Shown here: one piece after another, positions 1,945-52,973 of the stretch | Layout: the number at the start of each line of letters is the position of its first letter | Numbering within the stretch: the first letter of the stretch is position 1 | IMG/VR virus record: IMGVR_UViG_3300020577_002562 | Coordinates: 123,210-187,209 of that record | DNA from: a virus | Taxonomy: Duplodnaviria > Caudoviricetes | Reading direction: 5' to 3' (one strand) | DNA: 64,000 nt | Translations under genes and position numbers: made by a program | Notes under the pieces: model-generated | What the model was told of the DNA's origin: nothing | Databases searched by the model: none | What the model saw: the letters and a program-made list of their open reading frames with translations, nothing else

Positions 1945-2907
1945 CTACCACTTGATTCCGATGGTTGGACTGTCGTCAACTACTCTACGCCCCTTGTTCA
2001 TGTACTTCATGGCGACTTGTACCTGCTCTCGGTCGATCTTGAATCTCTCAGGCTTGTAGGTCTGCCAGAAGCAAGTGCGCAGACAGCCACGACTAGGGCC
2101 GTAGTCCTCTATGAAATGCTTGATCAACGGTTGTTGCTTGCCGTCCACCACTGTCCGTATACGTGCAGTCTCTTGCGCCAGCTTAGGTGGATTGGAAATC
2201 GGTATGACCTCGTAGATGGTGTCCCATCGCGGGATGTTCAAGCCGACTTGCACGATCCGTCGGATACCAACGATGATGCGAATGCGGCCGCTTCGCGCAT
2301 CTTGCAGTATCTTAGGACGCTGCGTGTTCCGTTCGACCTGACCAGTGAATGCGGCAGCAATGTCGCGGTCTTTCCCAGTCATACGTCGGTATGCCTTGTT
2401 CAGCACGTTGGTCAGCAGCATCGCGTGCTTCACTCGATCCACCGGGATGACGATTGACCGGTCGTGCTTGATAACGTCCTTCAGCGCGTGCTTGACTATC
2501 AGTGTGTTACGTTGCTCGTTGTTGGACAACCAAGTGATAGCACCCGGCCATGTCTTGTGACCGGCGTGCGTAACCCCAGTCTCTACGAACTGAACACTAG
2601 GCACCAGCGTATTGGCTTGCCCCTCGGCACGTACAGGACCGATCACCAACTGAGAGAGTATGATCTTGCCATCTTTGCGATCATACGTCCCCGTCAGTCC
2701 GATCATGTACAACGAGTTCAACTGAGCCACTACTTTGAGGTACTCATCCGCCGCAGTGTCGTGGCAATTATGAACGAGCACACCTTTGTCTGAGTCTGGG
2801 CCATAGACAAAGTAGTTGTGATGCTGCTCCACTCCTATATCGTACACATCTACAGGCGCATCCAGTTTGATATGCTCTACTGATGACACTCTCACTAATT
2901 TTGTCAT
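1945..2907 (-). CDS. split intein C-fragment (47 aa, 2767-2907) + C-terminal half of SF2 (UvsW-like) helicase
   Basis: VYDIGVEQHHNYF...LVHN|C (intein blocks F/G); then CH, GLTGT, VGLNIP, QETARIR helicase motifs. Confidence 0.92.
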   Translation of the reverse strand: MTKLVRVSSVEHIKLDAPVDVYDIGVEQHHNYFVYGPDSDKGVLVHNCHDTAADEYLKVVAQLNSLYMIGLTGTYDRKDGKIILSQLVIGPVRAEGQANTLVPSVQFVETGVTHAGHKTWPGAITWLSNNEQRNTLIVKHALKDVIKHDRSIVIPVDRVKHAMLLTNVLNKAYRRMTGKDRDIAAAFTGQVERNTQRPKILQDARSGRIRIIVGIRRIVQVGLNIPRWDTIYEVIPISNPPKLAQETARIRTVVDGKQQPLIKHFIEDYGPSRGCLRTCFWQTYKPERFKIDREQVQVAMKYMNKGRRVVDDSPTIGIKW

Positions 2908-2937
2908 ACTGGTGAATCATGTATTGGAGTTAAGGGC

Positions 2938-3966
2938 ATGTTACGTCAAGATCATCCGCGATTTCATCAAATGGTGTCCCGACATAGAGCCCTGTGCTCA
3001 GTAAGAAAGATAAAATTCACTGCCAAGATTGTTGACTTGAGCACTACACGTTATTTACATCGTTGTCACTGTGGTCATGCTTGGAAGCAAACTATATCGA
3101 ACTTTGTTGGCCGTACTGGATGTCCTGCTTGTGCGATGCGGCGTTTTCAACTAGCTGGAGCAGCTTCCGCGCGTGGAAAACCTGCGCATACGAGACTAAC
3201 AAAAGGGGAGTTTCTGAAGCGGCTTCCTAAAGGCTATCGTCTAATCGGATCTTACTCAGGACAACGCGAACTAGTCTCATTGAAATGCCCACAAGGTCAC
3301 ATAAGACGAACTACAGCGGACAACGCCCATCGTTATGGCTGTGGTGTATGCTCGGGAGTTGAAGTTTCACTTGACTCCCACAACAAGCAATTGGCTGCTC
3401 TGAATGACCGTGTTCGTTGCCTGCAGTATTTTGGGGCACGCACAGCATCCAGATACCATTGTCTACAGTGTAAGTTTCGCTGGTCTTGCATCCCTACAAA
3501 CATTTTGAAGACTAAACGATGTCATTGTCCGAGCTGTCAACCACCTGGCGTAACTGTCAGATGCGTCAAGCTTGGGCGTCGCAAAGTGCTTGTTCGTGGA
3601 TACGAGCCACAAGCTCTAAACTATTTGATACAAGTGAAGGGGTACAAACCTAACCAGATTCGTACAGAGCTTGAGGGAACTGTCCCAAGAATCAAAGTCA
3701 ATGGGCGACTTCATAAACCCGACTTTTTCATCCCAAGCGATAACCGTCTGGTAGAAGTCAAGTCGATTTTCACTCTCGGACTCAACGGTGAGCTATATTT
3801 CAAAAGAGCATTCCAGAAGTTGAAGACTAACCACGCAAAAGCCCGGGAGGCAGGGTACCGATACAACTTGCTAGTTTTTCTCAAAGACGGAACGCGAGTA
3901 GACATACCTAGTAAGTGGTATCTATTGAGCACTGAACAAATGCGACAGTTACTTCGACAACAATAG
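2938..3966 (+). CDS. putative homing endonuclease, repeated Zn-ribbons + PD-(D/E)XK domain
   Basis: multiple CxC..H..W / CPxC repeats; PDFFIP..N.LVEVKS motif; opposite strand to neighbours; paralog of 7056-7895. Confidence 0.85.
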   Translation: MLRQDHPRFHQMVSRHRALCSVRKIKFTAKIVDLSTTRYLHRCHCGHAWKQTISNFVGRTGCPACAMRRFQLAGAASARGKPAHTRLTKGEFLKRLPKGYRLIGSYSGQRELVSLKCPQGHIRRTTADNAHRYGCGVCSGVEVSLDSHNKQLAALNDRVRCLQYFGARTASRYHCLQCKFRWSCIPTNILKTKRCHCPSCQPPGVTVRCVKLGRRKVLVRGYEPQALNYLIQVKGYKPNQIRTELEGTVPRIKVNGRLHKPDFFIPSDNRLVEVKSIFTLGLNGELYFKRAFQKLKTNHAKAREAGYRYNLLVFLKDGTRVDIPSKWYLLSTEQMRQLLRQQ

Positions 3967-4965
3967 CTCGTCATTTACCGTTAACTCCGATGCCTTCACG
4001 TAATCTTGTCTAGTAACCGACCAAAACTTGTGGTTCGGAGTGCACAGAAGTTCTCTACCATCAATAGTGACGCGCACGAGATGGGTAACAGCTTTCTTTG
4101 TGAAGCTCTCTATGGGTTTGAATTCTCGTTTCCCAGATTGATGATTGAAGCACTCGACAGTCGTCTTGTAGCCGCTTTCTACAATATCACCTAAAGACAT
4201 CAGCCCATTTTTGGTCTTTACTCTATGACCATAGGTGAAGCATTCATCTATGATGATGGTCCCAAAGTGATCCTTGATCTGTTCAAGCTTCTTCTTGCCA
4301 CCAGCAGACAAGAACGTTTGATACGTACACAGCACGATGTCATACTTCAGCATATCCTTGACATCAGTGACTATGCCAGCGATCTTGCGTCCGTTGAACT
4401 TCTCTAGGTCGTCAATGTTGGTTACTGCATCCGCACCTTTGAGCGACAGCATGAACTGGCGCAACCAATCGATCTGGGCCGCAATGATCAGCGTGCGATA
4501 CCCGATCTTGATCGAAGCAGCTATCGCCATCACTGTCTTGCCCGAACGCGGCGGAGACAGTAAGACACCCCGCTTCTTCTTGATGATCGTGCGTACAGGA
4601 TCGCGTTGATTCTTCCAGAGCTTGCCTGTGAATTCGATGGCGTGACGAAACCGCTTGTATTCGGAAGCAGGCTTCTCTCTAGTGACAGTGATCGGCTTAC
4701 CAACTACTTCCTTGACGATTGACGGACGTCCCAACGGTAAACCAAGCATGCCATCTCGTTTGGTCCACAAGTGGTAAGTGCCCCGGAACTCAGGGCATTC
4801 GTCGCAGATGTCACAGTGACGCTCTTCTAGGTACTCACATTTGTTGCATGCTTTCTCGTTGTAGATGCGGATAGTCAGGTGTTTTTTGGCACGCTCTACA
4901 TTCTGCTTCGTAGCTGGCACCCACAGCTTGGAATTACGTACCGCCTCAACTGCTTGAGTCTTCAT
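3949..4965 (-). CDS. N-terminal half of SF2 (UvsW-like) helicase + split intein N-fragment (97 aa, 3952-4242)
   Basis: PPRSGKT Walker A; IIIDE|CFTYGHRV (intein block A); LCTPNHKF (block B TxxH); ASELTVNDEL end. Confidence 0.92.
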   Translation of the reverse strand: MKTQAVEAVRNSKLWVPATKQNVERAKKHLTIRIYNEKACNKCEYLEERHCDICDECPEFRGTYHLWTKRDGMLGLPLGRPSIVKEVVGKPITVTREKPASEYKRFRHAIEFTGKLWKNQRDPVRTIIKKKRGVLLSPPRSGKTVMAIAASIKIGYRTLIIAAQIDWLRQFMLSLKGADAVTNIDDLEKFNGRKIAGIVTDVKDMLKYDIVLCTYQTFLSAGGKKKLEQIKDHFGTIIIDECFTYGHRVKTKNGLMSLGDIVESGYKTTVECFNHQSGKREFKPIESFTKKAVTHLVRVTIDGRELLCTPNHKFWSVTRQDYVKASELTVNDELLLSK

Positions 4966-5251
4966 GTCCTGTATGCCCAGCTACGATTTTCAGTGCTGCG
5001 TTTACCGTCAACGACTCTGCAAGACTCAGCCCATACTGTCGTGGCGCCCAGCTACACATCGTAGCCAACTTGCGCAGCTTGGACTTAGGGCCAAGCACTG
5101 TTCCATTATTTAGTGCAATCAACTCACCGGCGCAGGCTTTCACATGTTTCTCAGCGTATGCTATGGCGCAGGTCATTTGTTCAATCGACGACCTGAGGGG
5201 TTTGCTGGTCTTAGTGATCTTGGTAGGCATGCTTTGAATCTCAACGTCCAT
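4946..5251 (-). CDS. hypothetical protein
   Basis: ATG 5251 with GAGGTG SD; start shortened relative to ORF track. Confidence 0.5.
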   Translation of the reverse strand: MDVEIQSMPTKITKTSKPLRSSIEQMTCAIAYAEKHVKACAGELIALNNGTVLGPKSKLRKLATMCSWAPRQYGLSLAESLTVNAALKIVAGHTGHEDSSS

Positions 5252-5261
5252 TGTCTTCACC

Positions 5262-5615
5262 TCATTCTGCCGCGTGGTCTTTGGTTTCACTGCTCTCAGC
5301 GGCCGTGGTGGCATTAGCTGACACCTCGAACAACCAACCTGAAGAGAGTGTCGCTTGCTTGTGATACTGCAATGACACTTGTCCTCGACGAATCTCTTTG
5401 ATGAAGCGCTTCGATACCAGAAGCGACCCAGCGTGTATCTTCCAATCAACCCCGGGTGTCATGGTCTGCTGGTTGTTAAGCACAGCTACAGCTACCACCT
5501 CTGATGGCAACCGGGTAGTTCGCTTGTTGATGGTCTTGATCTTCAACTCTACAGGTTTGTTTGTCACATCAACCTCAGTAAACGACTTTGTGCAGCCAGC
5601 CCATCGTTCTTCCAC
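5262..5615 (-). CDS. hypothetical protein
   Basis: operon packing. Confidence 0.5.
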   Translation of the reverse strand: MEERWAGCTKSFTEVDVTNKPVELKIKTINKRTTRLPSEVVAVAVLNNQQTMTPGVDWKIHAGSLLVSKRFIKEIRRGQVSLQYHKQATLSSGWLFEVSANATTAAESSETKDHAAE

Positions 5616-5833
5616 AGCATCTTGCGCCCGTTGAATATGGCATCTGCCGTTACTGACTCATCGGAAGTCAGAATCATAAACGCCGCTTCGGCTACTTCAT
5701 TTACAGTTTTGAAGACATAGAGAGCCACCTCTCCTCGGTCAATCACGCGTAAGCATACCACACCATCAGTCGGTGTGGGTACTTCGCGGGCATTGAAGTA
5801 AGTGGCTCGTAGCCGAAGCTGGTCATAACTCAT
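5564..5833 (-). CDS. hypothetical protein
   Basis: ATGA overlap with upstream gene. Confidence 0.5.
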   Translation of the reverse strand: MSYDQLRLRATYFNAREVPTPTDGVVCLRVIDRGEVALYVFKTVNEVAEAAFMILTSDESVTADAIFNGRKMLWKNDGLAAQSRLLRLM

Positions 5834-6150
5834 GTTGGTGGGTTGTTGGTTGCGATGGGTTCCGTTGCTACAGTGGTTGTTCCGTCAGTGGTTTCATCAC
5901 CTGCAGTCGTGCGTCGGTAATCGGGCTCGATTGGACTCGGTGTGGGCGCCTCACGCCACGGTTGTACCTGCCTAGTGGGTGCATACCACTGTTCTCTTTT
6001 GGCAACTGTTTGGTCAAACAGTTCCAAGCACTTGGCTAGATATTCTGCCAGTATGAAGTCCGGGGTGTTGGACCCGTTCTCTCTAGAGTGTTGATTGATC
6101 AGTGCGCGAAGCTCTTGTTCAAAGGTCGGTCGTTCAACTGTGTCTGTCAT
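5830..6150 (-). CDS. hypothetical protein
   Basis: AGGAG SD; ENGSNTPDFILAEYL motif seen in small phage proteins. Confidence 0.65.
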   Translation of the reverse strand: MTDTVERPTFEQELRALINQHSRENGSNTPDFILAEYLAKCLELFDQTVAKREQWYAPTRQVQPWREAPTPSPIEPDYRRTTAGDETTDGTTTVATEPIATNNPPT

Positions 6151-6289: not shown

Positions 6290-6544
6290 TCAACGCAACC
6301 GAAGGGTCGCGTACTTGTTACTGCGGTTATCCGAGTAACGGAGGTACATATGCAGTCTGCGATGAGACTGCTGGATCTTCTGGCACAACAAGCGAGCGGC
6401 GCAGCTTATGTGGGTGATTGATCGGAGTACCGATCCGTCACCTGCAGCTGGATACGCTGCTCGCCACAGACAACGTCCCAGCTTACGTCTGTTTGACCAG
6501 ACGAATCGGTACCGTCGCTTATTTCCCTTGAGCTTGACTTTCAC
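6290..6544 (-). CDS. hypothetical basic protein
   Basis: GTGA overlap with upstream gene. Confidence 0.45.
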   Translation of the reverse strand: MKVKLKGNKRRYRFVWSNRRKLGRCLWRAAYPAAGDGSVLRSITHISCAARLLCQKIQQSHRRLHMYLRYSDNRSNKYATLRLR

Positions 6545-6945
6545 AGCACACCCTCCATCATCCAGGCCAATCGAACAATAGCTCGTTGAACGCGGGTCTT
6601 GTAGTCCGAAAACTCCGCCATGCTAGGTCCACTACGCGGTATCGTAGCCACTTTTTCGCAGCCTGGTCTGGATACAACTGTACCTTCATCTGTATGGTTA
6701 ACGTTTATGCCTTTGAGCAAAGCAAGCTCCAAAGCTTGATCCCCATCTAGTATGGGGTTCCACAGCGCAGTTAATGTTGGAGCAAGATGGATCTGGATAC
6801 CCCATCTATTCGTACCTTGTAAGAAAGTGGTCTTCCACCCAAACGATTTGGCTATATGCTCTAGACATACGCGATCACCGGGTCTCTGCATTCGTGGGTC
6901 GCCGTTGTTGACCTGCATCGCAACATCGTTCAGTTCTGCAATCAT
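6541..6945 (-). CDS. hypothetical protein
   Basis: ATG 6945 with GGGAG SD, overlapping the stop of the stranded remnant; WNP..D..QALEL motif. Confidence 0.6.
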   Translation of the reverse strand: MIAELNDVAMQVNNGDPRMQRPGDRVCLEHIAKSFGWKTTFLQGTNRWGIQIHLAPTLTALWNPILDGDQALELALLKGINVNHTDEGTVVSRPGCEKVATIPRSGPSMAEFSDYKTRVQRAIVRLAWMMEGVL

Positions 6946-7016
6946 GTAGCATGCTCCCGTTTGGTGGCAATCTCCAACGCAGACAAGCTGTTCTTCACTG
7001 CCCACGCTGCTTTATC
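6942..7016 (-). pseudogene. stranded copy of the C-terminus of the 7892-8425 gene
   Basis: translates DKAAWAVKNSLSALEIATKREHAT*, versus DKASWAIKNSLNALEIVTKREHSA* at 7892-7966. Confidence 0.9.
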
Positions 7017-7055
7017 CGAAAGTCACTAATTTGCACGTAGACACCGGAGAAATAT

Positions 7056-7895
7056 ATGCCTCCAGTTTTGCGTTCACAAGTTGAAGTTACTCGTCTACTA
7101 AATAGTAACAATCCAACTATACGATCTATATCCGAGTATAGAGGATGTAGAAGTGAAGGACAATTCGAGTGCTTAGAGTGTAAGCATGTTTGGTCAGCTC
7201 AATGGAGACGCATAATACAAGGCGCAACAAAATGTCCTCGATGCGTATCTGTAAGACTTGGAGGCAAAAACAAGAAAACGCACCAAGTCTATTGTGAAGA
7301 ACTTGCGTTGGTCGATCCTTCTATCCAGCCTCTAGAAAAATACGTCAATAGCTACACGGCTATTTTGCATAGACATGAGTGTGGGCATGAGTGGAGACTA
7401 ATGCCGTTAAACTCACTCCGCGGTAGAGGCTGTCCTAAGTGTAAGCTTCGTTTGCGCACCGTCAAATTGGGGGCCCGAAAGGTTAACGTGCGTGGATATG
7501 AAGCCATAGCTTTAAAGTGGCTTGTTCGTAACAAGAAAGTCAAACCGTCTGAAATACAAACACACAACGAGAAAACGGTACCTAATTTTCTATATCACCA
7601 CAGAGGTAGGCGAACATATTTCCCAGACTTTTACATACCCAAAACGAATTGTATAGTCGAAGTCAAGTCTTTATCAACCGTAGGCATTCTTGGTAACTTC
7701 TTTAATCTTAAACCTAGAACTCTGTTCTCGCTCACACAAGCCAAGGCTAAAGCTGTACTGAACGCAGGCTATCGTTTTAGACTATTGATCATGGGCAGCG
7801 ATGGCAATAGAATACCGACTCCGAAAGGATGGCTTCGTATGACACACAAAGAATTTTGCGCGTCTATCGGACCTGAGCATACCAGCAAACATTAA
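7056..7895 (+). CDS. putative homing endonuclease, Zn-ribbons + PD-(D/E)XK domain
   Basis: CxxCxHxW/CPxC repeats; VKLGARKVNVRGYE and PDFYIP..N.IVEVKS shared with 2938-3966. Confidence 0.85.
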   Translation: MPPVLRSQVEVTRLLNSNNPTIRSISEYRGCRSEGQFECLECKHVWSAQWRRIIQGATKCPRCVSVRLGGKNKKTHQVYCEELALVDPSIQPLEKYVNSYTAILHRHECGHEWRLMPLNSLRGRGCPKCKLRLRTVKLGARKVNVRGYEAIALKWLVRNKKVKPSEIQTHNEKTVPNFLYHHRGRRTYFPDFYIPKTNCIVEVKSLSTVGILGNFFNLKPRTLFSLTQAKAKAVLNAGYRFRLLIMGSDGNRIPTPKGWLRMTHKEFCASIGPEHTSKH

Positions 7896-8425
7896 GCGGA
7901 GTGTTCTCTTTTTGTGACTATCTCAAGAGCGTTTAGACTATTTTTGATTGCCCAAGAAGCTTTGTCGAGGTCTTCCACCACCAAGTTGACCATCTCAAGC
8001 AGAGAGTCTAGGTGATCTACACTTTCTTGAGCCCGCTGTGTCAGCAAATTGATCAGTGCTCGCTGACCGGTCTTGGTACGAACGCCCATATTCGATAGCT
8101 GGGACTGGTACTCGGATTCGATGTATCGTTGAATGCCGAACAGTACAGAGGCCAAGTAGTTCCTGTTGCGTGTGATCAGCAGTATGATTTCAATGCACCG
8201 GCTGCGATAGGACTGGTCTTGAAGCCCAGCCTCTGACAATTTGCGAGCACCGGATTTGCTGGACAAGAGGCGCACACCCCGAGCCTTGTGCAGCTTGATC
8301 ACCTCTTCCAGCCAAGTCTCGAACTGAGGGTCCACTGCACGCTTGGCTACTACTCTGAATGCCTTGTACCGTGTGTCTTGTCTTAACAGCTTACGCAGCT
8401 TGAGCAAGGAGCTAGTTGGCGCCAT
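7892..8425 (-). CDS. helical protein of replication block (possibly UvsY-like recombination mediator)
   Basis: coiled-coil character, size and context; function is a guess. Confidence 0.45.
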   Translation of the reverse strand: MAPTSSLLKLRKLLRQDTRYKAFRVVAKRAVDPQFETWLEEVIKLHKARGVRLLSSKSGARKLSEAGLQDQSYRSRCIEIILLITRNRNYLASVLFGIQRYIESEYQSQLSNMGVRTKTGQRALINLLTQRAQESVDHLDSLLEMVNLVVEDLDKASWAIKNSLNALEIVTKREHSA

Positions 8426-39615: not shown

Positions 39616-39930
39616 CTACGTTGGATACATAATTACGTCGATGCTGCGGGCTCTCAAGTAGTCTATAGCATCCCATGCCGCTGTGTCCTTCGCATGGTGG
39701 TGATCTACAACCACTTGAGTAATTTCTCCGCTCGAAAATGGTCGAAAGAATGTGTCGGTAAGTGAAGATGCTCGAATGATGCGCAAATCTTCTCTACCGA
39801 GGGCTCTGGCAAGCCACATCGGGTACCTCAGATCACTGTTGCACCACACGAACACGGCGTTGGGCTTGGCGTCCCGCATCATCCGTGATGTTCTGCCTGT
39901 AACTGAGTTGGGCGTAGACTGCGCCATCAT
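39616..39930 (-). CDS. hypothetical protein
   Basis: ATGA overlap with gyrB. Confidence 0.55.
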   Translation of the reverse strand: MMAQSTPNSVTGRTSRMMRDAKPNAVFVWCNSDLRYPMWLARALGREDLRIIRASSLTDTFFRPFSSGEITQVVVDHHHAKDTAAWDAIDYLRARSIDVIMYPT

Positions 39931-41777
39931 TGCACTCCGAACAGTTCTTTGCGGTACGCTGAGTCTTTGCCCATCAGCAGCCGGAACTCATTGGCCCCAT
40001 TCTTGTCGGGGCCATTCACTCGGTAGAGAATGCGACGATCTGGGCTCAGTGCGATGTCCAACTCGTTCTCACTGATCTCACCCCAACCCTTGATGTATGT
40101 GATCGCCAGCTTGTCTGCGTCTACACCAGTGCGCTTGGCAATGGTCTCCTTCTTCATGCCAAAGTACAGCTTGCCCTTGTGCCAGCACTTGTAGAGCGGC
40201 GCCCTGACCACATGCACCACACCTTGCTTGAACAAGTGCGGCATGTAGCGCCACAAGATCGCCAAGCACAAGCAGTTGATGTGAGAACCGTCCACGTCCG
40301 GGTCCGCCATCGCAATGACTTTGCCGTAGCGGACAGTTGGTGGACCCTTCTTACCAAGCTCAACACCCAACGCAGCCAGTAGACCAACCACTTCTTTGTT
40401 GCTGTTTACTTTACCGGCATCCGCTTCCATCACGTTCAACGGCTTGCCACGTAGCGGGTAGATGGCTTGGAACGACTTGTCCCGCGCACGCTTGGCACCA
40501 CCCCCTGCGCTCTCACCTTCTACGATGAACAACTCGCACTCACCGGGTGGCCGCTTGCCGCTAACGTCTGCCAACTTGGTGCCGATGGTTTTCTTAGCCG
40601 AGTTGACTTCCTTGATCAGCTTCTTGTCTTTGAGGAAGTCTGCTGTACGTTCTCTCAGTTGAGCGGCACGAGCACACAGTTCCTTGGTGAATGTCTTGTT
40701 GACTTTGAAGAAGCTCTCGAACACCTTCAAGCACTCATTGTAGCAGGGCTCCTTGACTCGAATATCTACGAGCTTGTCTTTGGTCTGACTGCTGAACTGA
40801 GGTGCAGTGACTTTGTAGTTGAGCACACCCACCAGACCCTCGCGTAGATCCGTCGGAGTGAAGTGCTGACGCGCTCCCTTGTACGGCTCAATGGCATCGA
40901 CCAGTGCCTTGAACATAGCATCGGCGTGGATGCCTCGGTCAGCGTTGCGCACAGTGTTAGTAAAGAACTCGACTTGCTCACCTTCCGCGTTTGTGAAGTT
41001 GAGACACAGGTCAAGCGTGTGCGAAGTGTGGTGGAGTGGAGTCTTGTTGAAGGGCTCTGCCGACAACTCTTTCATTCGCTTCGCCAAGTACTCCTGCACA
41101 CCCTTCTTCGAGAACCACTGGCGCATCTTGCCATTGTGGAACACTTGGATGGTCAGACCGGCATTCATGTAGGCAGTCATCTCTGCCCACACCGTAAGCC
41201 GCTTCATGTCCAGTTGGTGCTTGCCGAAGATGTCCGGGTCCGGTGTGAACTGGATCACTGTACCAGACTTGATAGACTTGCCAGCGATCTTGGGGGGTCG
41301 GCACTTCTTGACCGGCTGCGTTTCACGACCCTGCTTAAACGATGTGCTGTGCCATCCACCACTGTCTTTGCGGTACGTCCAACACATGAAGTTGGAGGAC
41401 AGAGCATTGGTGCCCTTGATTCCAACCCCGTGTGTACCGATGGCCGACTCGTATGCACCCTTCTTCATCTTGCCACTAGACTGCAAGTTGGTCAGCACGT
41501 GAGTCAGCGTGCTGATCTTCATCACTGGGTGTTTGGCAACTGGAATGCCAACCCCGTGATCAATGACAGTGAACTGCCCCTTGTCCACATACACTTGGAT
41601 CAAGTCGTTCCGACCGGCACGGGCTTCATCCACTGCGTTGTCCAAGCACTCACGCAATACGGTGAAGACCCCGTCACTATCGACCGGACCCACATACATA
41701 GCTGGCCGACTACGTATCTTTTCCAGATCTCTTTTGAATGCCGTTATCGAAGTTTCGTCATACCGAGAACGGGTCAT
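39927..41777 (-). CDS. gyrB: type IIA topoisomerase subunit B (GyrB/ParE-like)
   Basis: RPAMYVG, ECLDNAVDE, DHGVGIP, GTHGVG, VEGESAGG, PLRGK, DPDVDG; ATG 41777 with AAGGA SD. Confidence 0.95.
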   Translation of the reverse strand: MTRSRYDETSITAFKRDLEKIRSRPAMYVGPVDSDGVFTVLRECLDNAVDEARAGRNDLIQVYVDKGQFTVIDHGVGIPVAKHPVMKISTLTHVLTNLQSSGKMKKGAYESAIGTHGVGIKGTNALSSNFMCWTYRKDSGGWHSTSFKQGRETQPVKKCRPPKIAGKSIKSGTVIQFTPDPDIFGKHQLDMKRLTVWAEMTAYMNAGLTIQVFHNGKMRQWFSKKGVQEYLAKRMKELSAEPFNKTPLHHTSHTLDLCLNFTNAEGEQVEFFTNTVRNADRGIHADAMFKALVDAIEPYKGARQHFTPTDLREGLVGVLNYKVTAPQFSSQTKDKLVDIRVKEPCYNECLKVFESFFKVNKTFTKELCARAAQLRERTADFLKDKKLIKEVNSAKKTIGTKLADVSGKRPPGECELFIVEGESAGGGAKRARDKSFQAIYPLRGKPLNVMEADAGKVNSNKEVVGLLAALGVELGKKGPPTVRYGKVIAMADPDVDGSHINCLCLAILWRYMPHLFKQGVVHVVRAPLYKCWHKGKLYFGMKKETIAKRTGVDADKLAITYIKGWGEISENELDIALSPDRRILYRVNGPDKNGANEFRLLMGKDSAYRKELFGVQ

Positions 41778-42531
41778 GTCCAATCCTTGAGTTTATCAGC
41801 TTGATACGATGTTGTAGTGATCTGCGGCTAAAGGTGCTACCAGAACCTTTCTTAATGTTGGCTTTGTAGTAGACAACATTAAGATTCGCTGGGTGACACA
41901 ATTCTTCCAATGGTACAGGTTTCTTTCGACGAATTAACGTCTGTTGTATATCAGACCATTTGAAATAGCCTGAAAACACAGAAAGCATGTGATCCACATG
42001 ATACTGCCTAGACCATTTTTCTGCGTTTGGAATGAACTCTGCGTAAAGCCCCATTACAGATCGAGTTAGTTTGTAAACGGTCCTTTTATACTCATCATAG
42101 GAGAGCTTCGATAGATCAAGACGAATCTTCTCCCGTATTGAAACTCTTATCTGCTGCCTACTACGGTGTTTACCTTGTTCCACCATTAGCTTGCGCTGTT
42201 CAACTTTTGAACGCAAAGCTTCATGCTCTTTCAACATACGTTCTATCTTGGAGTGAGATACTCCGTACTGGTCCGCTAGTTCTGCGCAAGTAGCTCCCTT
42301 CCGATAGCTTAGCACAATTTTCTTTTCTGGGAGCTCGACGTAGCGTTTCCTTATCCATCCTTCAGCTTCAGCTAACTTTTGTACTGTTGCGTGTGCGCAT
42401 TTCAGCACGTCAGCTACAGCTCTAAGGGATTGCTCTTCATTTATGTACAGTTTCCTGGCTAAAGCTTTTTTGCTGGGTGTCCAAATGGACGAGAGTCGTC
42501 CTGACTTAGTTCGTGGTCTATCAGGAAACAT
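41758..42531 (-). CDS. putative homing endonuclease (HTH repeats + HNH-like C-terminus)
   Basis: two HTH-like segments; YHVDH...HPANL...NIKKG; AT-rich; GGAG SD before ATG 42531 (alternative GTG 42549). Confidence 0.75.
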   Translation of the reverse strand: MFPDRPRTKSGRLSSIWTPSKKALARKLYINEEQSLRAVADVLKCAHATVQKLAEAEGWIRKRYVELPEKKIVLSYRKGATCAELADQYGVSHSKIERMLKEHEALRSKVEQRKLMVEQGKHRSRQQIRVSIREKIRLDLSKLSYDEYKRTVYKLTRSVMGLYAEFIPNAEKWSRQYHVDHMLSVFSGYFKWSDIQQTLIRRKKPVPLEELCHPANLNVVYYKANIKKGSGSTFSRRSLQHRIKLINSRIGHDPFSV

Positions 42532-42558
42532 AACAGCTCCAATGTACACACTTTCAAA

Positions 42559-42615
42559 TTAGTGTACATTGGCACGCTTGAAAGCAGTGATGTCTTTCTC
42601 TGTGTACTTTGCCAT
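42559..42615 (-). pseudogene. stranded copy of the gyrB N-terminus
   Basis: MAKYTEKDITAFKRANVH* versus gyrB MTRSRYDETSITAFKRD. Confidence 0.85.
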
Positions 42616-42618: not shown

Positions 42619-42987
42619 CTAGAGGATTGTAGTCTCGCTGTTAGTAGTCGTTGACTTAGTCTTTTGACTCTTGGAACTCTTCGGGCTGAAGTGCAGCGCT
42701 CTTGCAAACTTGATCAACCTTTCGGTGTGCATATTTACCCACGTCTTCACCAGATGCAAGTGTTCACACTTTACATGATGGAAACCATGCGGCAAACCTC
42801 TGACTGCATACACATGCCATTGAGGTAACAATGTCTTTTCGTCTACTGCTAATTCTCGGGTAATGTTCCACAAATGGATCCCACGCCAGAACACACGAAA
42901 GCATGTGCGCATTTCGGAGGCTGCACTATCCTGATTAGGTTCCGGTGGATTCACTTCCTGATAGTCTAGTTCCGTCGGATCAAACAT
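42619..42987 (-). CDS. hypothetical protein
   Basis: GGAG SD. Confidence 0.6.
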   Translation of the reverse strand: MFDPTELDYQEVNPPEPNQDSAASEMRTCFRVFWRGIHLWNITRELAVDEKTLLPQWHVYAVRGLPHGFHHVKCEHLHLVKTWVNMHTERLIKFARALHFSPKSSKSQKTKSTTTNSETTIL

Positions 42988-47493: not shown

Positions 47494-47794
47494 TAAGGGT
47501 GTCCCTGCTCTTGCCACTTGAAGAAGTGGTTTTTGACACAGATGGCTCCGATCTATGCGACCCAACAAGCTTGTTAACTTGCTGAGTCTATGCAATCATC
47601 GCCACGGCAGGGACCACCTTAGTCAGCACATCACTTCATTATCCGCTAGTGCTGACCAAGGGACTATGGATCAGGCCGCGAGGGCCTGATCGAATTGCGC
47701 GTCGTTGGCAGTTCTCTCTTTGCTTGGTTTGCGGCTCCGCTTGCCGGATCGTCGTTCTTACTCTCGGTAACCCTGTCGAAACTATTTCAGCCCC
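47494..47794 (-). ncRNA. ssrA: two-piece tmRNA, coding piece (5' end 47794; tag ANDAQFDQALAA at 47709-47671; 3' end uncertain)
   Basis: GGGGCTGAAATAGTTTCGAC start; resume context AACT|GCC; stop within GATCAGGCC/GGCCTGATC hairpin. Confidence 0.92.
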
Positions 47795-48285
47795 ATCACA
47801 AGTGCACGAACGTACCCCGTTGGAATCTGATTCGTCTTTGGTTGGACGACTCTATGAACTTCCCACCCTTTTCTTATAGCTGATCGCTCTTTCTTCGCAT
47901 CTAGTTGCTTGATAGTGGCATCAAAATGATAAGCACCATCGAACTCGATAAGAATCCTACGATCATCTATCTTCAGAGCCAGATCAAACACGTATTTTCC
48001 AACGGGAAGTTCAAATTTATGTCTTACCTTGTATTTTGTCAACCAGGCCTGAAGCTTTCCGTATTTGCTAGCTTCTCTCTTTCTAAGCAAAGCTGCTACG
48101 TGTTTTACTTCATGCCCGTAAGTTGCTCCAGAATAGTGCTGTCCACATTTACGTGAACAGAAATATGGTTTTGGCAGTTTCTTACCTGCTTTCACCCATT
48201 TGCTATTTTGGTGCGTTACTTCGGCTAACTTTTTCGTGAAGTTAGCCTTGCACAAACTACAAGTTAGTTTTACCGTCTGTATCAT
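47782..48285 (-). CDS. putative homing endonuclease (Zn-ribbon + Vsr/DUF559-like nuclease) in tmRNA intervening segment
   Basis: CSLC...FCSRKC; FDLAL...IEFDGAYH...GWEVHRV; AT-rich; ATG 7 nt after CCA. Confidence 0.8.
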   Translation of the reverse strand: MIQTVKLTCSLCKANFTKKLAEVTHQNSKWVKAGKKLPKPYFCSRKCGQHYSGATYGHEVKHVAALLRKREASKYGKLQAWLTKYKVRHKFELPVGKYVFDLALKIDDRRILIEFDGAYHFDATIKQLDAKKERSAIRKGWEVHRVVQPKTNQIPTGYVRALVMGLK

Positions 48286-48292
48286 ACACTTA

Positions 48293-48510
48293 TGGTGGAG
48301 CTGGCGGGTACTGCCCCCGCGTCCAGAACCCCTCAAGCTCGATCTCTCAAGCTCTTTACGAGCCCTCACGATCATTACTACCACGACGTTCCATACTCAC
48401 AACCTTTCGATTGCCGGTACGGGTGCGGTATCGCGTACCGACCTGACCACTTGCGGAATACAGCTTTACCCTATTGACCGTCACTTGGGCAGCTGCTTGA
48501 CGGTCAAGAT
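48293..48510 (-). ncRNA. ssrA: two-piece tmRNA, acceptor piece (CCA end at 48293; 5' end uncertain)
   Basis: GGACGCGGGGGCAGTACCCGCCAGCTCCACCA; pairs with GGGGCTG giving G3-U70. Confidence 0.9.
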
Positions 48511-48893: not shown

Positions 48894-50120
48894 TCAACCC
48901 TTCACACAGACTACTTGCTTGAGCGTGTGAACCACGTCCACAAGGTCAGCTTGAGCTGCCATCACCATGTCGATGTCCTTGTAAGCCATCGGTGTCTCAT
49001 CCAACACCGAATCGTCTTTGCGGCACTCTACGCCGACGGTGGCGGCAACGTGATCCTCAACCGTAAACCTCTTCTTCGCTTCGTTGCGTCCCATCACACG
49101 ACCAGCACCGTGACTGCACGAACAGAAGGAGTCCGGATTGCCCTTACCACGCACGAGGTAGGACTTGGCACCCATGGAACCTGGGATGATGCCAAGCTGA
49201 TCGGCTTGTGCTGATACAGCCCCCTTGCGTGTCAAGTAAACGTCCTGGCCGAAATGACGCTCAATCGACACATAGTTGTGGTGGCAGTTCACTGCCGATT
49301 CCATTAACAGGAACTCTTTCGATACTGACTCAACCAATGCCTGTACCGTACTCATCATCATGAGCTCCCGGTTCTTACGAGCAAATGCTTGCGCCCAGAG
49401 AACTGCCATGCAGTAGTGGTCGAAATGCTTGGAGCCTTCAGACAGGTACGCCAAGTTCTTGTCGCTGAGTTGGTACTTGCCGACGATGTCCATTTCACGT
49501 TTGGCCTTCTCGATGAAGAAGGTGCCAATGCGGTTACCGATGCCGCGCGAGCCTGAATGCAGCATCAACCATACGTACTGATCTTCATCGATGCAGACCT
49601 CAATGAAGTGATTGCCAGTGCCGAGAGTACCTGCATGCAATGGTGCTCTACGTGCAGCACGCTCCAACTCGGGGTACAGTTGGACCAGAGCCTCCAGTTC
49701 TGTCAACTCGTCTTTGAGATACTGCAAGACCATCGGATCGGGCAGATCCCATGCACCACAGTCACCTGGGCCACCTTCATGTGAGCGACCATGCGGAACA
49801 CGTCGTTCAATGTTGGTGCGTAGCTCATGCAAATTATCCGGCAAGTCACTTGCTCTAAGCGAGGTCTGTTGTGCCATCATGCCACAACCAATGTCCACCC
49901 CAACAGCGGCTGGAATCAGTGCTTTGATGGTCGGCACAACGGTACCGATGGTGGTGCCTGCGCCCCAATGAACGTCTGGCATCACCGCGACATGACTGTG
50001 AACAAACGGTAATGCTGCCAGGTTCCTCAACTGCGTGACCGCAGCGTCTTCAACTGGCACTCCCTTCGTCCACATCTTGATCGGTACTGGGCTGCCTTGC
50101 AACTCGATATAGCTCACCAT
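48894..50120 (-). CDS. rtcB: RtcB RNA ligase
   Basis: MPDVHWG, VGVDIGCG, GTLGTGNHF, HSGSRG, HHNY, SCSHGAGR, YKDID, VCVKG. Confidence 0.97.
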   Translation of the reverse strand: MVSYIELQGSPVPIKMWTKGVPVEDAAVTQLRNLAALPFVHSHVAVMPDVHWGAGTTIGTVVPTIKALIPAAVGVDIGCGMMAQQTSLRASDLPDNLHELRTNIERRVPHGRSHEGGPGDCGAWDLPDPMVLQYLKDELTELEALVQLYPELERAARRAPLHAGTLGTGNHFIEVCIDEDQYVWLMLHSGSRGIGNRIGTFFIEKAKREMDIVGKYQLSDKNLAYLSEGSKHFDHYCMAVLWAQAFARKNRELMMMSTVQALVESVSKEFLLMESAVNCHHNYVSIERHFGQDVYLTRKGAVSAQADQLGIIPGSMGAKSYLVRGKGNPDSFCSCSHGAGRVMGRNEAKKRFTVEDHVAATVGVECRKDDSVLDETPMAYKDIDMVMAAQADLVDVVHTLKQVVCVKG

Positions 50121-50497
50121 GTTTCCTTGGCAGGACTTGGCGTCTTCGGCGTCCCATACTTGGTTATCAGCTTTTCCAGTTGCTTCCGTTCGCTCTGTTC
50201 GCGCCTCTTCTTTGTGGCTTCCCGCTCACGCTTGTCGCGTTCACGCGTCTTTTGTTCTCTGCTCAAACGCGCAGTGCGTTCCTGCTCAGTTTCCGGCCTG
50301 TACCAGAAGAAGATTTGGTCGTCAGCATCGAACTTGATCTTCGAGTAGTCAACTCCTTCTGGAAGTCTATCCACAAGATTTTCGATGCTATCACCATCGT
50401 ACAGAGGGACGCTGTCCTGAACAAGTTTGGGTTGAGCCGACTTGGTGTTCTTAGTTGAGGGCGCGGTCTTGGTGGTCTTGGTGGTCTTAGCGTTCAT
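50114..50497 (-). CDS. hypothetical protein with KTTK-rich N-terminus
   Basis: ORF between tRNA and rtcB. Confidence 0.6.
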   Translation of the reverse strand: MNAKTTKTTKTAPSTKNTKSAQPKLVQDSVPLYDGDSIENLVDRLPEGVDYSKIKFDADDQIFFWYRPETEQERTARLSREQKTRERDKREREATKKRREQSERKQLEKLITKYGTPKTPSPAKETW

Positions 50498-50539
50498 GTT
50501 GATCTACCGTTGAATGTTGTGGGTGGTGAAGATGGTTAA

Positions 50540-50617
50540 TGGTCCGCCGGAAGGGATTCGAACCCCCGACCTGCTGCTTAGAAGGCAGCTGCTCTAATCC
50601 TACTGAGCTACCGGCGG
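50540..50617 (-). tRNA. tRNA-Arg(TCT)
   Basis: full cloverleaf, loop CTTCTAA, CCA. Confidence 0.95.
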
Positions 50618-50856
50618 TTGGTTGGCTGGTGGTTCTAAAGCACTCGAATTTGAACTCAAGTCGTCTTTGAAGTAATAGAGAGTGACTCCTGGCGGAAGCG
50701 CATCTAACCACAGCACTCTTCCGAACTTAGGGTCATAACCAGTACGGCTCGCCTGTGTACTTCCGTACCTGAGTACGGTGTACTTCCCACGCAAACAACA
50801 TAGCATCTTCTACGAACGGATCGTAGTCTATGACTGCTGAAGCATCCGTTTCGGAG

Positions 50857-51387
50857 TCAATAGAGGTTTTCACTGAACAGTTCACGTTCATCTCCTGGGC
50901 AACGATGCAATATCTGACCAGCGGCTCTAGCTACGGTCAAGGCTTCGTAACGGTTCATCCACTTGCCGTGCTGGTCCACGAAACCATCTTCAGCTTTCGC
51001 CCAGTCTGCTAGGTTTCTCACGCCAAACTCTAAAAGCTGCTGCATGATTGAATCGTAGTGTCGCGGGCCGCACAAGATGTGGCCTCGCTTACTACGGATA
51101 GCGGCACATACCACCCGACGTTGACTGGCATCCGGCTGTACTGTCTCTTCCTGCTCTACGGCCTTTACTGGTGGAGTAGCATGCCAGGTTCGTGTAGCAG
51201 AACATGAGCCGCCATGACTGTTATATGGGTCGAAGCGAAGTCCATCAGGTCGTTCCAACCAGACCACTGCCTGGTGGTTAACCTGTGGATAGTTGGCATC
51301 AGTGATGCCAGTAACGGTACCGGGACCAACTGAACTTCTAGACACAGGGTCACCAATGTTCAGCGTACACGGATCAAGCTCAGACAT
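50857..51387 (-). CDS. hypothetical two-domain phage protein
   Basis: AGGAG SD; RVVCAA...GPRH...GF.DQ.G.WM.R.EA motif. Confidence 0.65.
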   Translation of the reverse strand: MSELDPCTLNIGDPVSRSSVGPGTVTGITDANYPQVNHQAVVWLERPDGLRFDPYNSHGGSCSATRTWHATPPVKAVEQEETVQPDASQRRVVCAAIRSKRGHILCGPRHYDSIMQQLLEFGVRNLADWAKAEDGFVDQHGKWMNRYEALTVARAAGQILHRCPGDERELFSENLY

Positions 51388-51796
51388 GTTCAACTCCTGT
51401 CCAGGGATCATCGTATACTGGTGGTCGAAGCCGCATCACTTCAAACCAAGCGTGTTCGTACATGGGCTGCTCAAAGTAGCGTCCGATTCTGATCACGATG
51501 GGGGTGTGTAAGCTGTTTATGCTGTGTGTCCCGACTACACGGAGTCGGGGGCTCAATATACCTCTACTCAATGACCATCTGTTCGCTTCCATCAGATCCT
51601 TGGCGAAAATCAGTATGACCGACTCGTTAGCTTGGAGCACGTCAAGCAGCGGACGAGTTTCTTTACAGTACCTAGCAACCGGCTTCAATTCGGAGAACAG
51701 CTTACGTGTCTCCTCAGAACACTGAAATCGAGGTGGCATCTGGAATCCTTGTTTGCTCATCGGCTTGATGGACAAAGGGGTGGCACACGAGGCCAC
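51380..51796 (-). CDS. hypothetical protein (start probably internal)
   Basis: operon packing. Confidence 0.5.
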   Translation of the reverse strand: MASCATPLSIKPMSKQGFQMPPRFQCSEETRKLFSELKPVARYCKETRPLLDVLQANESVILIFAKDLMEANRWSLSRGILSPRLRVVGTHSINSLHTPIVIRIGRYFEQPMYEHAWFEVMRLRPPVYDDPWTGVEHV

Positions 51797-51800
51797 CCCT
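51776..51800 (-). terminator. terminator-like hairpin after HU gene
   Basis: AGGGGTGGC/GCCACCCCT. Confidence 0.6.
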
Positions 51801-51822
51801 GTAGTTGCTAAGACTATCCAGA

Positions 51823-52281
51823 TCAGCAGTCGCCGTTCGACGCCCTCTTCAGCTTGGCGAGCACTCGGATGCGAGCTTTGATGTAAGACGGGCGAGTGTA
51901 CGCGGGCCGTCCCTTGGACTTCATCATCTCTCCGGTGCTTGGGTTGCGGACTTCAGTGCCCTTCTTGATAGCCGGAAACTTCTTGGCTGGCATCTTCTTG
52001 GTCACGACTTTGAACATACCCGGCCACGAAAACTCGCCAGCGCCGCCGGGCATGACTGATGCCATCATGGCACGCTCGAAGGTAGCCATGACTGCCTTCA
52101 CTTGGCGTGGTTCCAGTTCGTTCTTCTCAGCGATCTTTGCCATCAGCTCATTCTTGGTGAACTTCTTGCGAAGAGGCTTGATTGCATCGACGGTTTTTGC
52201 ACGACGAGCCCTCGTCGTCTTGGCCTTGCTCTTGGTGGTCTTGCTGGTCTTCGTGGTCTTTGCCTTGGCGGTACGTGCCAT
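51823..52281 (-). CDS. HU/IHF-family DNA-binding protein with basic N-terminal tail
   Basis: TKNELMAKIAEK; F.WPGMFKV; RNPSTGE; AGGA SD before ATG 52281. Confidence 0.88.
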   Translation of the reverse strand: MARTAKAKTTKTSKTTKSKAKTTRARRAKTVDAIKPLRKKFTKNELMAKIAEKNELEPRQVKAVMATFERAMMASVMPGGAGEFSWPGMFKVVTKKMPAKKFPAIKKGTEVRNPSTGEMMKSKGRPAYTRPSYIKARIRVLAKLKRASNGDC

Positions 52282-52312
52282 GATGGTTCCTACTGTGAAA
52301 GGTGGGTGAATC

Positions 52313-52369
52313 TGGTGCCGGCTATCCGACTCGAACGGATGACCTACCGGCGGTTTCAATGAAATTGGT
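52313..52369 (-). tRNA. 3' half of split tRNA-like gene
   Basis: CCGGT-AGGTC-ATCCG TTCGAGT CGGAT-AGCCGGC-ACCA preceded by 17-nt extension. Confidence 0.8.
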
Positions 52370-52452
52370 GCTGGGGGTGAGATTCGAACTCACGTGAGGT
52401 TGCCCTGCCGGCTTACAAAACCGGTGCAATCGACCAACTATGCGACCCCAGC
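52366..52452 (-). tRNA. nested tRNA-Thr(TGT) with long variable arm
   Basis: GCTGGGG/CCCCAGC acceptor, loop TTTGTAA, AGG-GCAA-CCT variable arm, CCA. Confidence 0.85.
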
Positions 52453-52862
52453 TAGTAAGATTTACCTTCTGCATAGCGCACACGACGCGAATGGCGTCCG
52501 TAGCCACGGTTTCGTCCCTTATAGGTATCAGTTTGCGCGTCACAGTTATGACAGATCAGCCGTAGATTTGTCAATTTCCAATCGTATGGGTTTCCATCCA
52601 TATGATCCATAACAAGTGGTACTGGGTACCCACGCCATGTAGTTCTTTTGCAGAGTTTGCATCTATGACCGCGCGTGAAAATTAGGTATGTTTTGATTAG
52701 TTTGACTGTCATACCCTTTGGAAGTTTACCAAGCTTCCTGATCTTAGCGAACGCCAACTTACGTTGATATTGCTGCTGACAATTATTGCTGCAATACTTT
52801 TGGGTTGCCGTTTCCCGGTACAGCTCGATGCTGTCTCTACAATTCAAACAACGTACTTTCAT
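52452..52862 (-). CDS. HNH homing endonuclease
   Basis: CLNC..YCSNNC; CKLC; DHMDGN....LTNLRLICHNC. Confidence 0.9.
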   Translation of the reverse strand: MKVRCLNCRDSIELYRETATQKYCSNNCQQQYQRKLAFAKIRKLGKLPKGMTVKLIKTYLIFTRGHRCKLCKRTTWRGYPVPLVMDHMDGNPYDWKLTNLRLICHNCDAQTDTYKGRNRGYGRHSRRVRYAEGKSY

Positions 52863-52922
52863 GTAGTACCTTTCTAGTCTACATGAAATTAGCGTACCAC
52901 TGTTAATGCGCGTTACAGGTTT

Positions 52923-52973
52923 ACCAATTTCATTGAAACTGCCGATTGCTCTACCAGACTGAGCTAAGCCGGC
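52923..52973 (-). tRNA. 5' half of split tRNA-like gene
   Basis: GCCGGCT-TA-GCTCAGTCTGGTAGAGC-A-ATCGG followed by extension complementary to the 3' half. Confidence 0.8.

Follow-up and report, generated by a model that had tools for sequence, protein, structure and literature searches.

Probable free-standing homing-endonuclease cassettes in a large tailed phage and the different ways in which their target genes may tolerate them

Nuclease cassettes in essential genes without introns

It is usually assumed that a homing endonuclease gene must reside in an intron, an intein or an intergenic gap in order to survive. We analyzed a stretch of 64,000 nucleotides (hereafter the window) of viral DNA, comprising bases 123,210-187,209 of IMG/VR record IMGVR_UViG_3300020577_002562, a single contig of 187,209 bp. 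The source is a large tailed phage, with genes for a portal protein, a large terminase and baseplate-like proteins. Its genome contains at least six free-standing nuclease cassettes of four nuclease types. Five of these lie within the window (nuclease genes H1 to H5, at sites 1 to 5), and a sixth, H6, is inserted in the large terminase gene outside the window. Our conclusion, to which we assign a probability of roughly 0.8, is that these are late-expressed homing-endonuclease cassettes, each located in an essential gene that lacks a self-splicing intron, and each tolerated in a different way.

The proposed ways are as follows. At site 1, a split intein would rejoin the protein halves of a helicase. 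In a gene for a protein of 177 amino acids (aa), the cassette would supply AT-rich, recoded last 25 codons, while the resident copy would be left as a relic containing the ribosome-binding site (RBS) of the next gene (site 2). In gyrB, the cassette would supply recoded first 16 codons and its own RBS, and a 14-codon relic would stay upstream (site 3). The cassette in the tmRNA gene would lie in an intervening segment that tRNA-processing enzymes discard anyway (site 4). Finally, a complete tRNA carried by the cassette would replace a resident tRNA-Thr(UGU) whose anticodon loop was destroyed (site 5).

An earlier note on this DNA had suggested that several intron-free strategies of this kind coexist in one genome. 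Our analysis supports this suggestion, and the arrangements it described were confirmed at all five sites. The five nuclease open reading frames (ORFs) that it reported are all present, and their AT-richness holds: by GC content they rank 0-8 among 207 genes, with 42-47% GC compared to a gene mean of 52.3%. The absence of a group I or group II intron core is likewise borne out, as there is no Rfam match with E <= 1 at the five sites (E <= 10 at site 5). The genes are:

2938..3966, plus strand: H1, Zn-ribbon and putative PD-(D/E)XK-type nuclease; Pfam DUF7487/DUF4379; PHROG endonuclease families; GC 46.6%
7056..7895, plus strand: H2, DUF7487, DUF4379 Zn-ribbon, PDF...EVK motif; convergent with the 177-aa target gene
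41758..42549, minus strand: H3, helix-turn-helix (HTH) repeats and a probable His-Me-finger domain; likely start ATG 42531
47782..48285, minus strand: H4, Zn-ribbon and DUF559 (putatively Vsr-like)
52452..52862, minus strand: H5, putative HNH gene; PHROG HNH families, E = 2e-19

A search of phage records for nearly identical DNA found only one match, of tRNA size, and no close deposited relative. The gyrB-like protein is at most 39% identical to its counterparts in jumbo phages of Xanthomonas, Rhizobium, Vibrio and Ralstonia. Closer relatives (73-99% DNA identity) are known only as short metagenome contigs. Alignment to such contigs, which the earlier note had advised as a way to find empty alleles, recovered one at site 2 (contig L002) and one at site 4 (contig L039), in both cases with breakpoints at the cassette ends. 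We infer homing activity from these differences in presence and absence, together with sequence mosaicism.

A replaced C-terminus

The features of site 2, other than H2, are:

7892..8425, minus strand: 177-aa target gene (phrog_17451, end-to-end match); last 25 codons at 7892-7966, GC 39%
6942..7016, minus strand: relic of the resident C-terminus (...KREHAT, then stop), GC 53%
6541..6947, minus strand: downstream gene (MIAELND...), which directly follows the target gene in L002

The proposal of a replaced C-terminus is confirmed by a duplication of 25 codons around H2, with one copy attached to the target gene and the other beyond the nuclease gene. The target gene ends in ...DKASWAIKNSLNALEIVTKREHSA, and its stop codon overlaps that of the convergent H2, while the second copy reads ...DKAAWAVKNSLSALEIATKREHAT followed by a stop. 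The empty allele in L002, a JGI contig, encodes a protein that is 95% identical and contains neither the nuclease gene nor the duplication. Site 2 passes the test set by the earlier note, as the duplication is missing from this nuclease-free relative. L002 positions 3-850 align to 8787-7940 of the window, and positions 824-1046 align to 7016-6794. The gene in L002 ends in ...KREHAT and has an ATGA overlap with the next gene. Both relatives end in ...KREHAT, as the relic does, and the attached copy has many synonymous changes. Because the relatives end like the relic, and because the GC contents of the two copies differ (39% versus 53%), the attached copy probably arrived with H2. The inserted segment is thus about 950 bp long (7017-7966), and consists of the replacement end, the convergent H2, a hairpin and a sequence motif (see below). 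The relic retains the GGGAG RBS and the ATGA overlap of the downstream gene, and it is presumably for this reason that the relic has been kept. A scan of IMG/VR with the 177-aa protein found nothing.

Partial C-terminal duplications beside endonuclease ORFs have been described in fungal mitochondria, e.g., in cob and atp6 of Endoconidiophora (PMC6279837). Site 2 resembles these cases in that a gene end is duplicated, with an endonuclease ORF between the working copy and the relic. It differs from them in that it is located in a phage, its junctions are fixed by an empty allele, and there is a mirror case in which the N-terminus is replaced (site 3). In the literature that we searched, we did not find a phage example of such an end duplication, nor a version involving an N-terminus or a whole tRNA.

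A nuclease gene in the spacer of a permuted tmRNA

In addition to H4, site 4 consists of:

48293..48344, minus strand: tmRNA acceptor piece ending in CCA (Rfam RF04321)
47671..47794, minus strand: tmRNA coding piece, which starts with GGGGCUG and encodes the tag ANDAQFDQALAA (Rfam RF04321)

That this is a permuted tmRNA gene, as previously proposed, is established by a match to RF04321 at 47671-48344 with 97.8 bits (gathering score 47), and by the presence of the G3.U70 pair and the tag. The model leaves about 475 nucleotides (nt) unaligned, within a spacer of 498 nt that extends from the CCA end at 48293 to GGGGCUG at 47794. The gene is missing from the output of ARAGORN. The spacer is filled by the nuclease gene: the most likely start codon of H4 is ATG 48285, which is separated from the CCA by 5 nt and begins at the sixth base, and the UAG stop codon of H4 lies 13 nt inside the tmRNA coding piece (47782-47794).

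The empty allele in L039 is a permuted tmRNA (108.7 bits; 90.3 bits with the beta-type model) whose spacer is 98 nt in length and contains no ORF. L039 positions 1-567 align to 48858-48293, and positions 666-1741 align to 47795-46720. The junctions coincide with the ends of the mature RNA. Since the nuclease-free L039 is permuted, the split in the tmRNA would be older than H4. The earlier note had counted this site among the rescues of a target gene. It was right that the nuclease gene occupies the spacer, but this spacer would have been a ready-made safe place, rather than a rescue that evolved for the insertion of H4.

Identity to L039 is 98.8% downstream of the insert; on the upstream side it is 98% at a distance, and only 82-90% over the ~170 nt that immediately precede the insert. 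Within this stretch (48293-48460, versus L039 400-567), the acceptor piece has the T-loop GGCAGUA instead of UUCGAUU, and one acceptor-stem base differs; the stem is fully paired in this genome and has a C.C mismatch in L039. The alphaproteobacterial tmRNA model gives a weak match to the acceptor piece. The diverged ~170 nt may have been co-converted from a donor whose tmRNA was of another type, in which case the present tmRNA would be a chimera. It is also possible that RNase P, by cutting at the 5' end of the tmRNA, makes the H4 message non-stop, and hence a target of trans-translation. A scan of IMG/VR with the exact tmRNA string found nothing.

A 2025 survey of 97,179 tmRNA sequences reported endonuclease genes only within group I introns, and the spacers of permuted genes contained only tRNA-Ala and a repetitive element (PMC11915505). 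The interrupted tmRNA genes have group I introns in the T-loop, some with LAGLIDADG genes (PMC11915505). Site 4 is like these interrupted genes in that a selfish element occupies a part that is missing from the mature RNA. Unlike them, it is free of introns and uses the intervening segment of a permuted gene. H4 is apparently the first endonuclease gene to be seen in the spacer that is discarded from a permuted tmRNA.

A replaced N-terminus in gyrB

The gene affected at site 3 encodes a gyrB-like topoisomerase subunit:

42559..42615, minus strand: relic of the resident gyrB start, 14 codons; ATG 42615, MAKYTEKDITAFKR, then ANVH and a stop
39927..41777, minus strand: gyrB-like topoisomerase subunit; replacement N-terminus MTRSRYDETSITAFKR, then DLEKIRSRPAMYVGP

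In agreement with the replaced N-terminus put forward previously, the true start of gyrB is ATG 41777, and the relic lies beyond H3. The 3' end of H3 overlaps the gyrB start by 20 nt, and the RBS of gyrB, AAGGA, is inside the end of H3. In relatives with no nuclease gene directly upstream, gyrB starts with MTKKYSEKDISGFKRDLDKIR (L023) or MNYTEKSITYFDSDLSKIR (L024). The relic resembles these starts, and 9 of 12 residues are identical to L023. In the more distant contig L033 (73% DNA identity), the end of H3 (76% aa identity) overlaps MTRSQYDEKSITAFKR in the same manner, which suggests that H3 and the replacement start go together in at least two diverged genomes. We found no empty allele of site 3 among close relatives.

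A separate peculiarity is that gyrB in L023 (451-2337, its start being 63% identical) is called as two ORFs, of 126 and 472 aa, that are 87 nt apart. A frameshift or a sequencing error could account for this break, as could another interruption.

A tRNA within a broken tRNA

Site 5 contains H5 and the following features:

52940..52973, minus strand: 5' half of the resident tRNA-Thr(UGU), with acceptor strand, D arm and 5' anticodon-stem strand
52923..52951: left arm of an inverted repeat, pairing with 52341-52369
52366..52452, minus strand: nested tRNA-Thr(UGU), 87 nt, with a 13-nt variable arm
52313..52369, minus strand: right arm of the inverted repeat and resident 3' half; the 3' half, 52313-52352, has the 3' anticodon-stem strand, T arm, acceptor strand and CCA

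The suggestion of a split tRNA with a nested tRNA is accurate: the two halves flank H5 and a complete tRNA-Thr(UGU). On the minus strand, the order is 5' half, repeat arm, motif and hairpin, H5, nested tRNA, repeat arm and 3' half. The nested tRNA begins on the final base of the H5 stop codon, and the right repeat arm opens with the CCA of this tRNA.

Over 33 nt, the 3' half exactly matches 18 tRNA-Thr(UGU) genes of bacteria from metagenomes, and the 5' half differs from those genes, up to the anticodon stem, by one inserted base. Because both halves match bacterial tRNA-Thr(UGU), we conclude that the outer gene was a tRNA-Thr(UGU). The identity of the 3' half may point to the host, or to where the phage tRNA came from. 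The bacterial sequences with an identical 3' half (L003-L022) are large metagenome contigs of up to 450 kb.

The anticodon loop of the outer tRNA has been replaced, and no joining of the flanks yields U33, UGU and a purine at position 37. We read the outer tRNA as a probable relic. The anticodon of the nested tRNA is also UGU, and no other tRNA-Thr is present among the five tRNAs in the genome. The variable arm of the nested tRNA has a 3-bp stem, which is unusual for tRNA-Thr, and its nearest phage matches include class II tRNA-Ser genes (75-79% identical). We considered whether it is a tRNA-Ser(UGA) with a shifted anticodon and rejected this candidate, because its identity to the tRNA-Ser genes located next to related HNH genes is only 57-59%. 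Among the four closest relatives of H5 in IMG/VR, two adjoin tRNA-Thr(UGU), one adjoins tRNA-Ser(UGA), and one has tRNA-Ser(UGA) about 300 nt downstream.

The arms of the inverted repeat are 29 nt in length and 86% complementary, with a perfect core of 15 bp, and about 0.04 such repeat pairs are expected in the whole window. They fold as one long, continuous helix with one A.C mismatch and no bulge-helix-bulge motif. The repeat might serve as a site at which RNase III releases the cassette transcript, or it might be a fold-back scar left when the cassette was inserted.

We did not find an empty allele of site 5: all contigs recovered are 98.8-100% identical to the window and occupied, and an IMG/VR scan with the exact tRNA string found nothing. 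Our interpretation of this site is one suggested by its anatomy.

HNH genes are present in tRNA clusters of T5-like phages. Free-standing endonuclease genes in phage tRNA clusters also include T4 SegB (PMC2330249). Site 5 is like both, as homologues of H5 occur in the tRNA clusters of many phages. It is unlike them in that the cassette is inside a tRNA gene whose anticodon loop is destroyed, and in that it brings a tRNA with a matching anticodon, with a long inverted repeat surrounding it all.

Two further observations concern this region. The right repeat arm includes CACCAATTTCA (52360-52370, minus strand), a one-mismatch copy of the motif discussed below that points at the downstream HU-like gene. 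In addition, a gene for an RtcB RNA ligase (Pfam, 408 bits) is located at 48894-50120 on the minus strand, between the tRNA cluster and the tmRNA gene. Its role is probably tRNA repair; rebuilding the broken tRNA-Thr would not be possible for RtcB.

A helicase fractured by a split intein

The helicase gene at site 1 is in two parts, on either side of H1:

3949..4965, minus strand: helicase N part (ResIII) and N-intein of about 97 aa (Pfam ResIII, Intein_splicing; translation)
1945..2907, minus strand: 47-aa C-intein, then C+1 and the helicase C part (Pfam; translation)

As the earlier note had recognized, H1 coincides with a split intein. The intein breaks a superfamily 2 helicase at its DE|CH box, with the halves flanking the antisense H1. 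The N part ends in ...IIIDE|C, the N-intein starts with C and contains TPNH, and the C-intein ends in VLVHN|CH. Joining the helicase halves restores the DECH box, and an intact helicase is predicted to result from protein trans-splicing. H1, on the plus strand, is opposite to the helicase halves, and overlaps the N part by 18 bp.

Relatives L040 and L041 (84-90% identity) have the same layout, and no empty allele was found among close relatives. In Vibrio phage vB_VcorM_GR11A (MT366761.1, 3372-7055), the helicase is 38% identical, and a split intein is present at the same DE|CH position. The gap in that phage contains a different antisense ORF with a Zn-ribbon and a Vsr-like domain (motif ...EFHGDCWHG...); its record labels the split helicase parts and the antisense ORF as hypothetical proteins. 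Given the same split with a different ORF in the gap, the splitting of the helicase would be old, and the nuclease gene in the gap would have turned over.

Site 1 is an instance of the already known "fractured gene" layout (Dassa 2009, PMC2677866). In published fractured genes, the order is extein and N-intein, nuclease gene, and C-intein and extein; the nuclease ORF brings along a promoter element and overlaps a neighbor (PMC2677866). Site 1 and the terminase share this order, as well as the accompanying promoter element and the overlap of the nuclease ORF with a neighbor. In the 26 published loci, all three ORFs are on the same strand, and the nucleases are GIY-YIG or Vsr-like (PMC2677866). 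By contrast, H1 is antisense to the helicase, as is the ORF in vB_VcorM_GR11A, and is probably of the Zn-ribbon DUF7487 PD-(D/E)XK type.

The large terminase gene, at genome positions 112,621-116,892 (7.3-10.6 kb before the window; L027 2621-6892), is also fractured by a split intein. A 331-aa N part is followed by H6 (DUF7487, 106 bits), which is on the same strand and has the motif and a hairpin, and then by a 787-aa C part. The C part far exceeds the length of the terminase match, which fits an additional cis intein.

The nuclease genes

H1 and H2 are paralogs with 34% identity, and H6 is a third paralog. All three match DUF7487 above its cut-off and carry PDF...EVKS, and H6 also has a weak TnsA_N match. 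A sequence search of solved structures with H2 gave no match. H4 matches DUF559 (25.8 bits, versus a Pfam cut-off of 20.6) and contains ...IEFDGAYHFD.... H4 has no sequence match to solved structures, including I-Bth0305I. Using tblastn, H4 had no match in phage records and only a 25-residue match in IMG/VR. H5 matches Pfam HNH_3 with 20.7 bits, which is below the cut-off of 24.8.

The assignment of H3 is less direct. Its sequence reveals only HTH domains, and the family comprises about 300 proteins. In 26 aligned homologs, D186, H187, H219, N222 and N231 are invariant (pattern HxDH...HPxNL...N...KG). When the whole H3 model was used to search for similar folds, the only matches were to its HTH repeats. 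The C-terminal domain modeled alone has a pLDDT of 97, and its top fold matches are HNH/His-Me-finger domains, all of them weak (Foldseek E > 0.3, Z <= 3.7): Cas9 HNH, Gme HNH, Cap5, McrA, the nuclease domains of BrxU and SspE, and T5 SciA. Based on the invariant HxDH...HPxNL...N motif and these weak fold matches, H3 is a probable His-Me-finger nuclease.

A shared motif and probable control hairpins

The sequence CACTAATTT has 9 copies in the genome, compared to 1.2 expected. The earlier note had linked four of the nuclease genes to a common upstream motif. Indeed, C[AG]CTAATTT occurs 13-43 nt upstream of H1, H2, H3 and H5. However, it is not specific to nucleases. Intergenic C[AG]CTAATTT[CG] or close variants precede H1, H2, H3, H5 and H6, and also a baseplate-like gene, a small gene that heads the portal operon, and three further genes. 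Each copy points in the same direction as the next gene, and this is also true for the antisense H1 and H2. The motif is nevertheless enriched, being found at 5 of 6 nuclease genes versus about 6 of 267 other genes (Fisher p = 2e-7). The copies in the window that precede nuclease genes are:

2893..2901, plus strand: H1 motif CACTAATTT, 36 nt upstream of the H1 start; no hairpin
7024..7083, plus strand: H2 motif (7024-7032) and hairpin; the GGAG RBS pairs with CUCC; free energy -16 kcal/mol, z-score -2.1
42537..42575, minus strand: H3 motif (42556-42564) in a hairpin with an 11-bp perfect stem over the start region; free energy -22.9 kcal/mol, z-score -3.3
52854..52902, minus strand: H5 motif CGCTAATTT (52886-52894) and hairpin with the H5 ATG in its 3' arm; z-score -2.85

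For H2, H3, H5 and H6, the motif is in or next to a hairpin whose other arm is the RBS or start codon (z-scores -2.1 to -3.3). Because the motif also precedes structural and other genes, it is best read as a late-type promoter of the phage that the cassettes carry, rather than as a homing signal. H4 presumably rides on the tmRNA transcript. The nuclease genes would thus be expressed late and, for four of the six, the hairpin would hide the RBS or start codon within longer, read-through transcripts.

There is precedent for such control. In T4 and in mobE of Aeh1, a late promoter lies inside a translation-blocking hairpin upstream of endonuclease genes, and a nuclease gene whose 3' end overlaps a downstream target is also known (PMC2677866, section 14). 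H2, H3, H5 and H6 are similar to the T4 and Aeh1 cases (PMC2677866) in that their motif adjoins a stem that pairs the RBS or start codon. They are different in that the motif is C[AG]CTAATTT[CG], not TATAAATA, and its promoter function is suggested by its position before structural genes.

A possible mechanism and alternative explanations

Sites 2, 3 and 5 have a layout in common: the working copy is directly beside the nuclease gene and overlaps that gene or its stop codon, and the relic is on the far side. At site 2, the base composition of the cassette is a further clue. This layout might have arisen because a resistant allele beside the nuclease gene was copied in. In such a model, the donor's nuclease gene would adjoin a cut-resistant allele of the target. 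The nuclease would cut a sensitive allele in a diverged genome, and during repair the nuclease gene would be copied along with some or all of the target from the donor. Extending this idea, the cassettes could be active "target-replacement" homing elements, each with a recoded, cut-resistant piece of its target, and the tmRNA spacer could be a second route, with a brake provided by the non-stop H4 message. We offer this extended version tentatively, and think that the odds are somewhat against it.

Several points weigh against our conclusions. Differences in occupancy, together with mosaicism, cannot separate gain from loss, and homing, splicing and transcription have all been read from sequence. 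The fold evidence that H3 contains a nuclease domain is weak (Foldseek E > 0.3, best Z 3.7). H1 has the motif without a hairpin, and H4 has neither. The attached copy at site 2 begins with 21 nt that hardly differ from the empty allele, and immunity to cutting must therefore lie elsewhere. At site 5, given that no empty allele was found, the nested tRNA may predate the HNH gene, and the 15-bp perfect inverted repeat is not explained by copying from a donor.

With these points in mind, we considered whether the nuclease genes are decayed or passive passengers, with the duplications and relics being ordinary recombination scars and no homing taking place today. This would suit the fact that homing activity is read from DNA sequence only, that H3 belongs to no nuclease family recognized by sequence, and that the layouts of sites 1 and 3 are common to relatives at 73-90% identity, as expected from vertical descent. 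However, all of the ORFs are intact, their catalytic motifs are conserved and the control hairpins are well formed. Moreover, occupancy differs between close relatives at two sites, with breakpoints exactly at the cassette ends, and the H4 flank is more diverged than the remainder, like a co-conversion tract. We therefore regard the passenger explanation as improbable, while giving it more weight than the two that follow. One of these holds that the phage benefits from the nuclease genes, which would, e.g., exclude or degrade co-infecting relatives or regulate genes, and that they are placed where cutting a rival does most harm. The conserved nature of the targets (helicase, gyrB, tmRNA, tRNA) is in line with this idea, as are the several HTH repeats of H3, which are typical of regulators, and the finding that nuclease genes mark boundaries of genetic exchange between phages (PMC10448857). 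Such a benefit is compatible with homing, but alone it leaves the recoded copies and the relics unexplained, and as a full account we find it very unlikely.

The other explanation, which concerns site 5, is that the outer tRNA works and contains a giant intron, such that the helix directs excision and RtcB ligates the halves, in an archaeal-like manner. The acceptor, D and T arms and the CCA are perfect, a 29-bp helix brings the halves close to each other, and the RtcB gene is only 2.3 kb away. Nonetheless, no cut-and-join produces an anticodon loop of 7 nt in which U33, UGU and a purine at 37 are all present, and we dropped splicing by RtcB because the flanking bases cannot rebuild that loop. 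The helix is continuous and lacks a bulge-helix-bulge, there is no group I intron, and a complete tRNA-Thr(UGU) is already supplied inside. Cleavage of the helix by RNase III would not help, since this enzyme leaves ends that RtcB cannot join. We give this scenario very little credence, and continue to favor homing-endonuclease cassettes that are tolerated without introns.

Other ORFs of low GC content

Three additional ORFs have low GC content and no family match: 42619-42987 (minus strand), 55519-55974 (plus strand) and genome positions 54221-55039 (plus strand). The first, of 122 aa, is just upstream of the gyrB relic, and a search of 5.8 billion proteins returned only the query itself, and no homolog. 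The second, of 151 aa, is antisense to its neighbors and adjoins tRNA-Met.

Implications

In overall kind, these findings belong to the biology of free-standing homing endonucleases with known controls. What appears to be new here is the insertion in a tmRNA spacer, the tRNA-in-tRNA cassette, and the pairing of N-terminal and C-terminal replacements in a phage. The solutions based on a tmRNA spacer and on a spare tRNA appear to be previously undescribed. Five solutions are found side by side in one genome, and for two of them natural empty alleles fix the junctions to the base. At sites 2 and 4, empty and occupied alleles are available as substrates for enzymes of four nuclease types. The layouts also matter for annotation, as they explain short orphan ORFs, "truncated" genes, a tmRNA missed by ARAGORN and a tRNA pseudogene.

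The replaced gene ends may represent an intermediate stage, in line with models that place free-standing endonuclease genes before mobile introns and inteins. Site 5 would be a compact mobile unit in which a tRNA is cargo that compensates for damage done by its own carrier. If target replacement does occur as proposed, it would open a general route into both coding and RNA genes for which no intron or intein is required.

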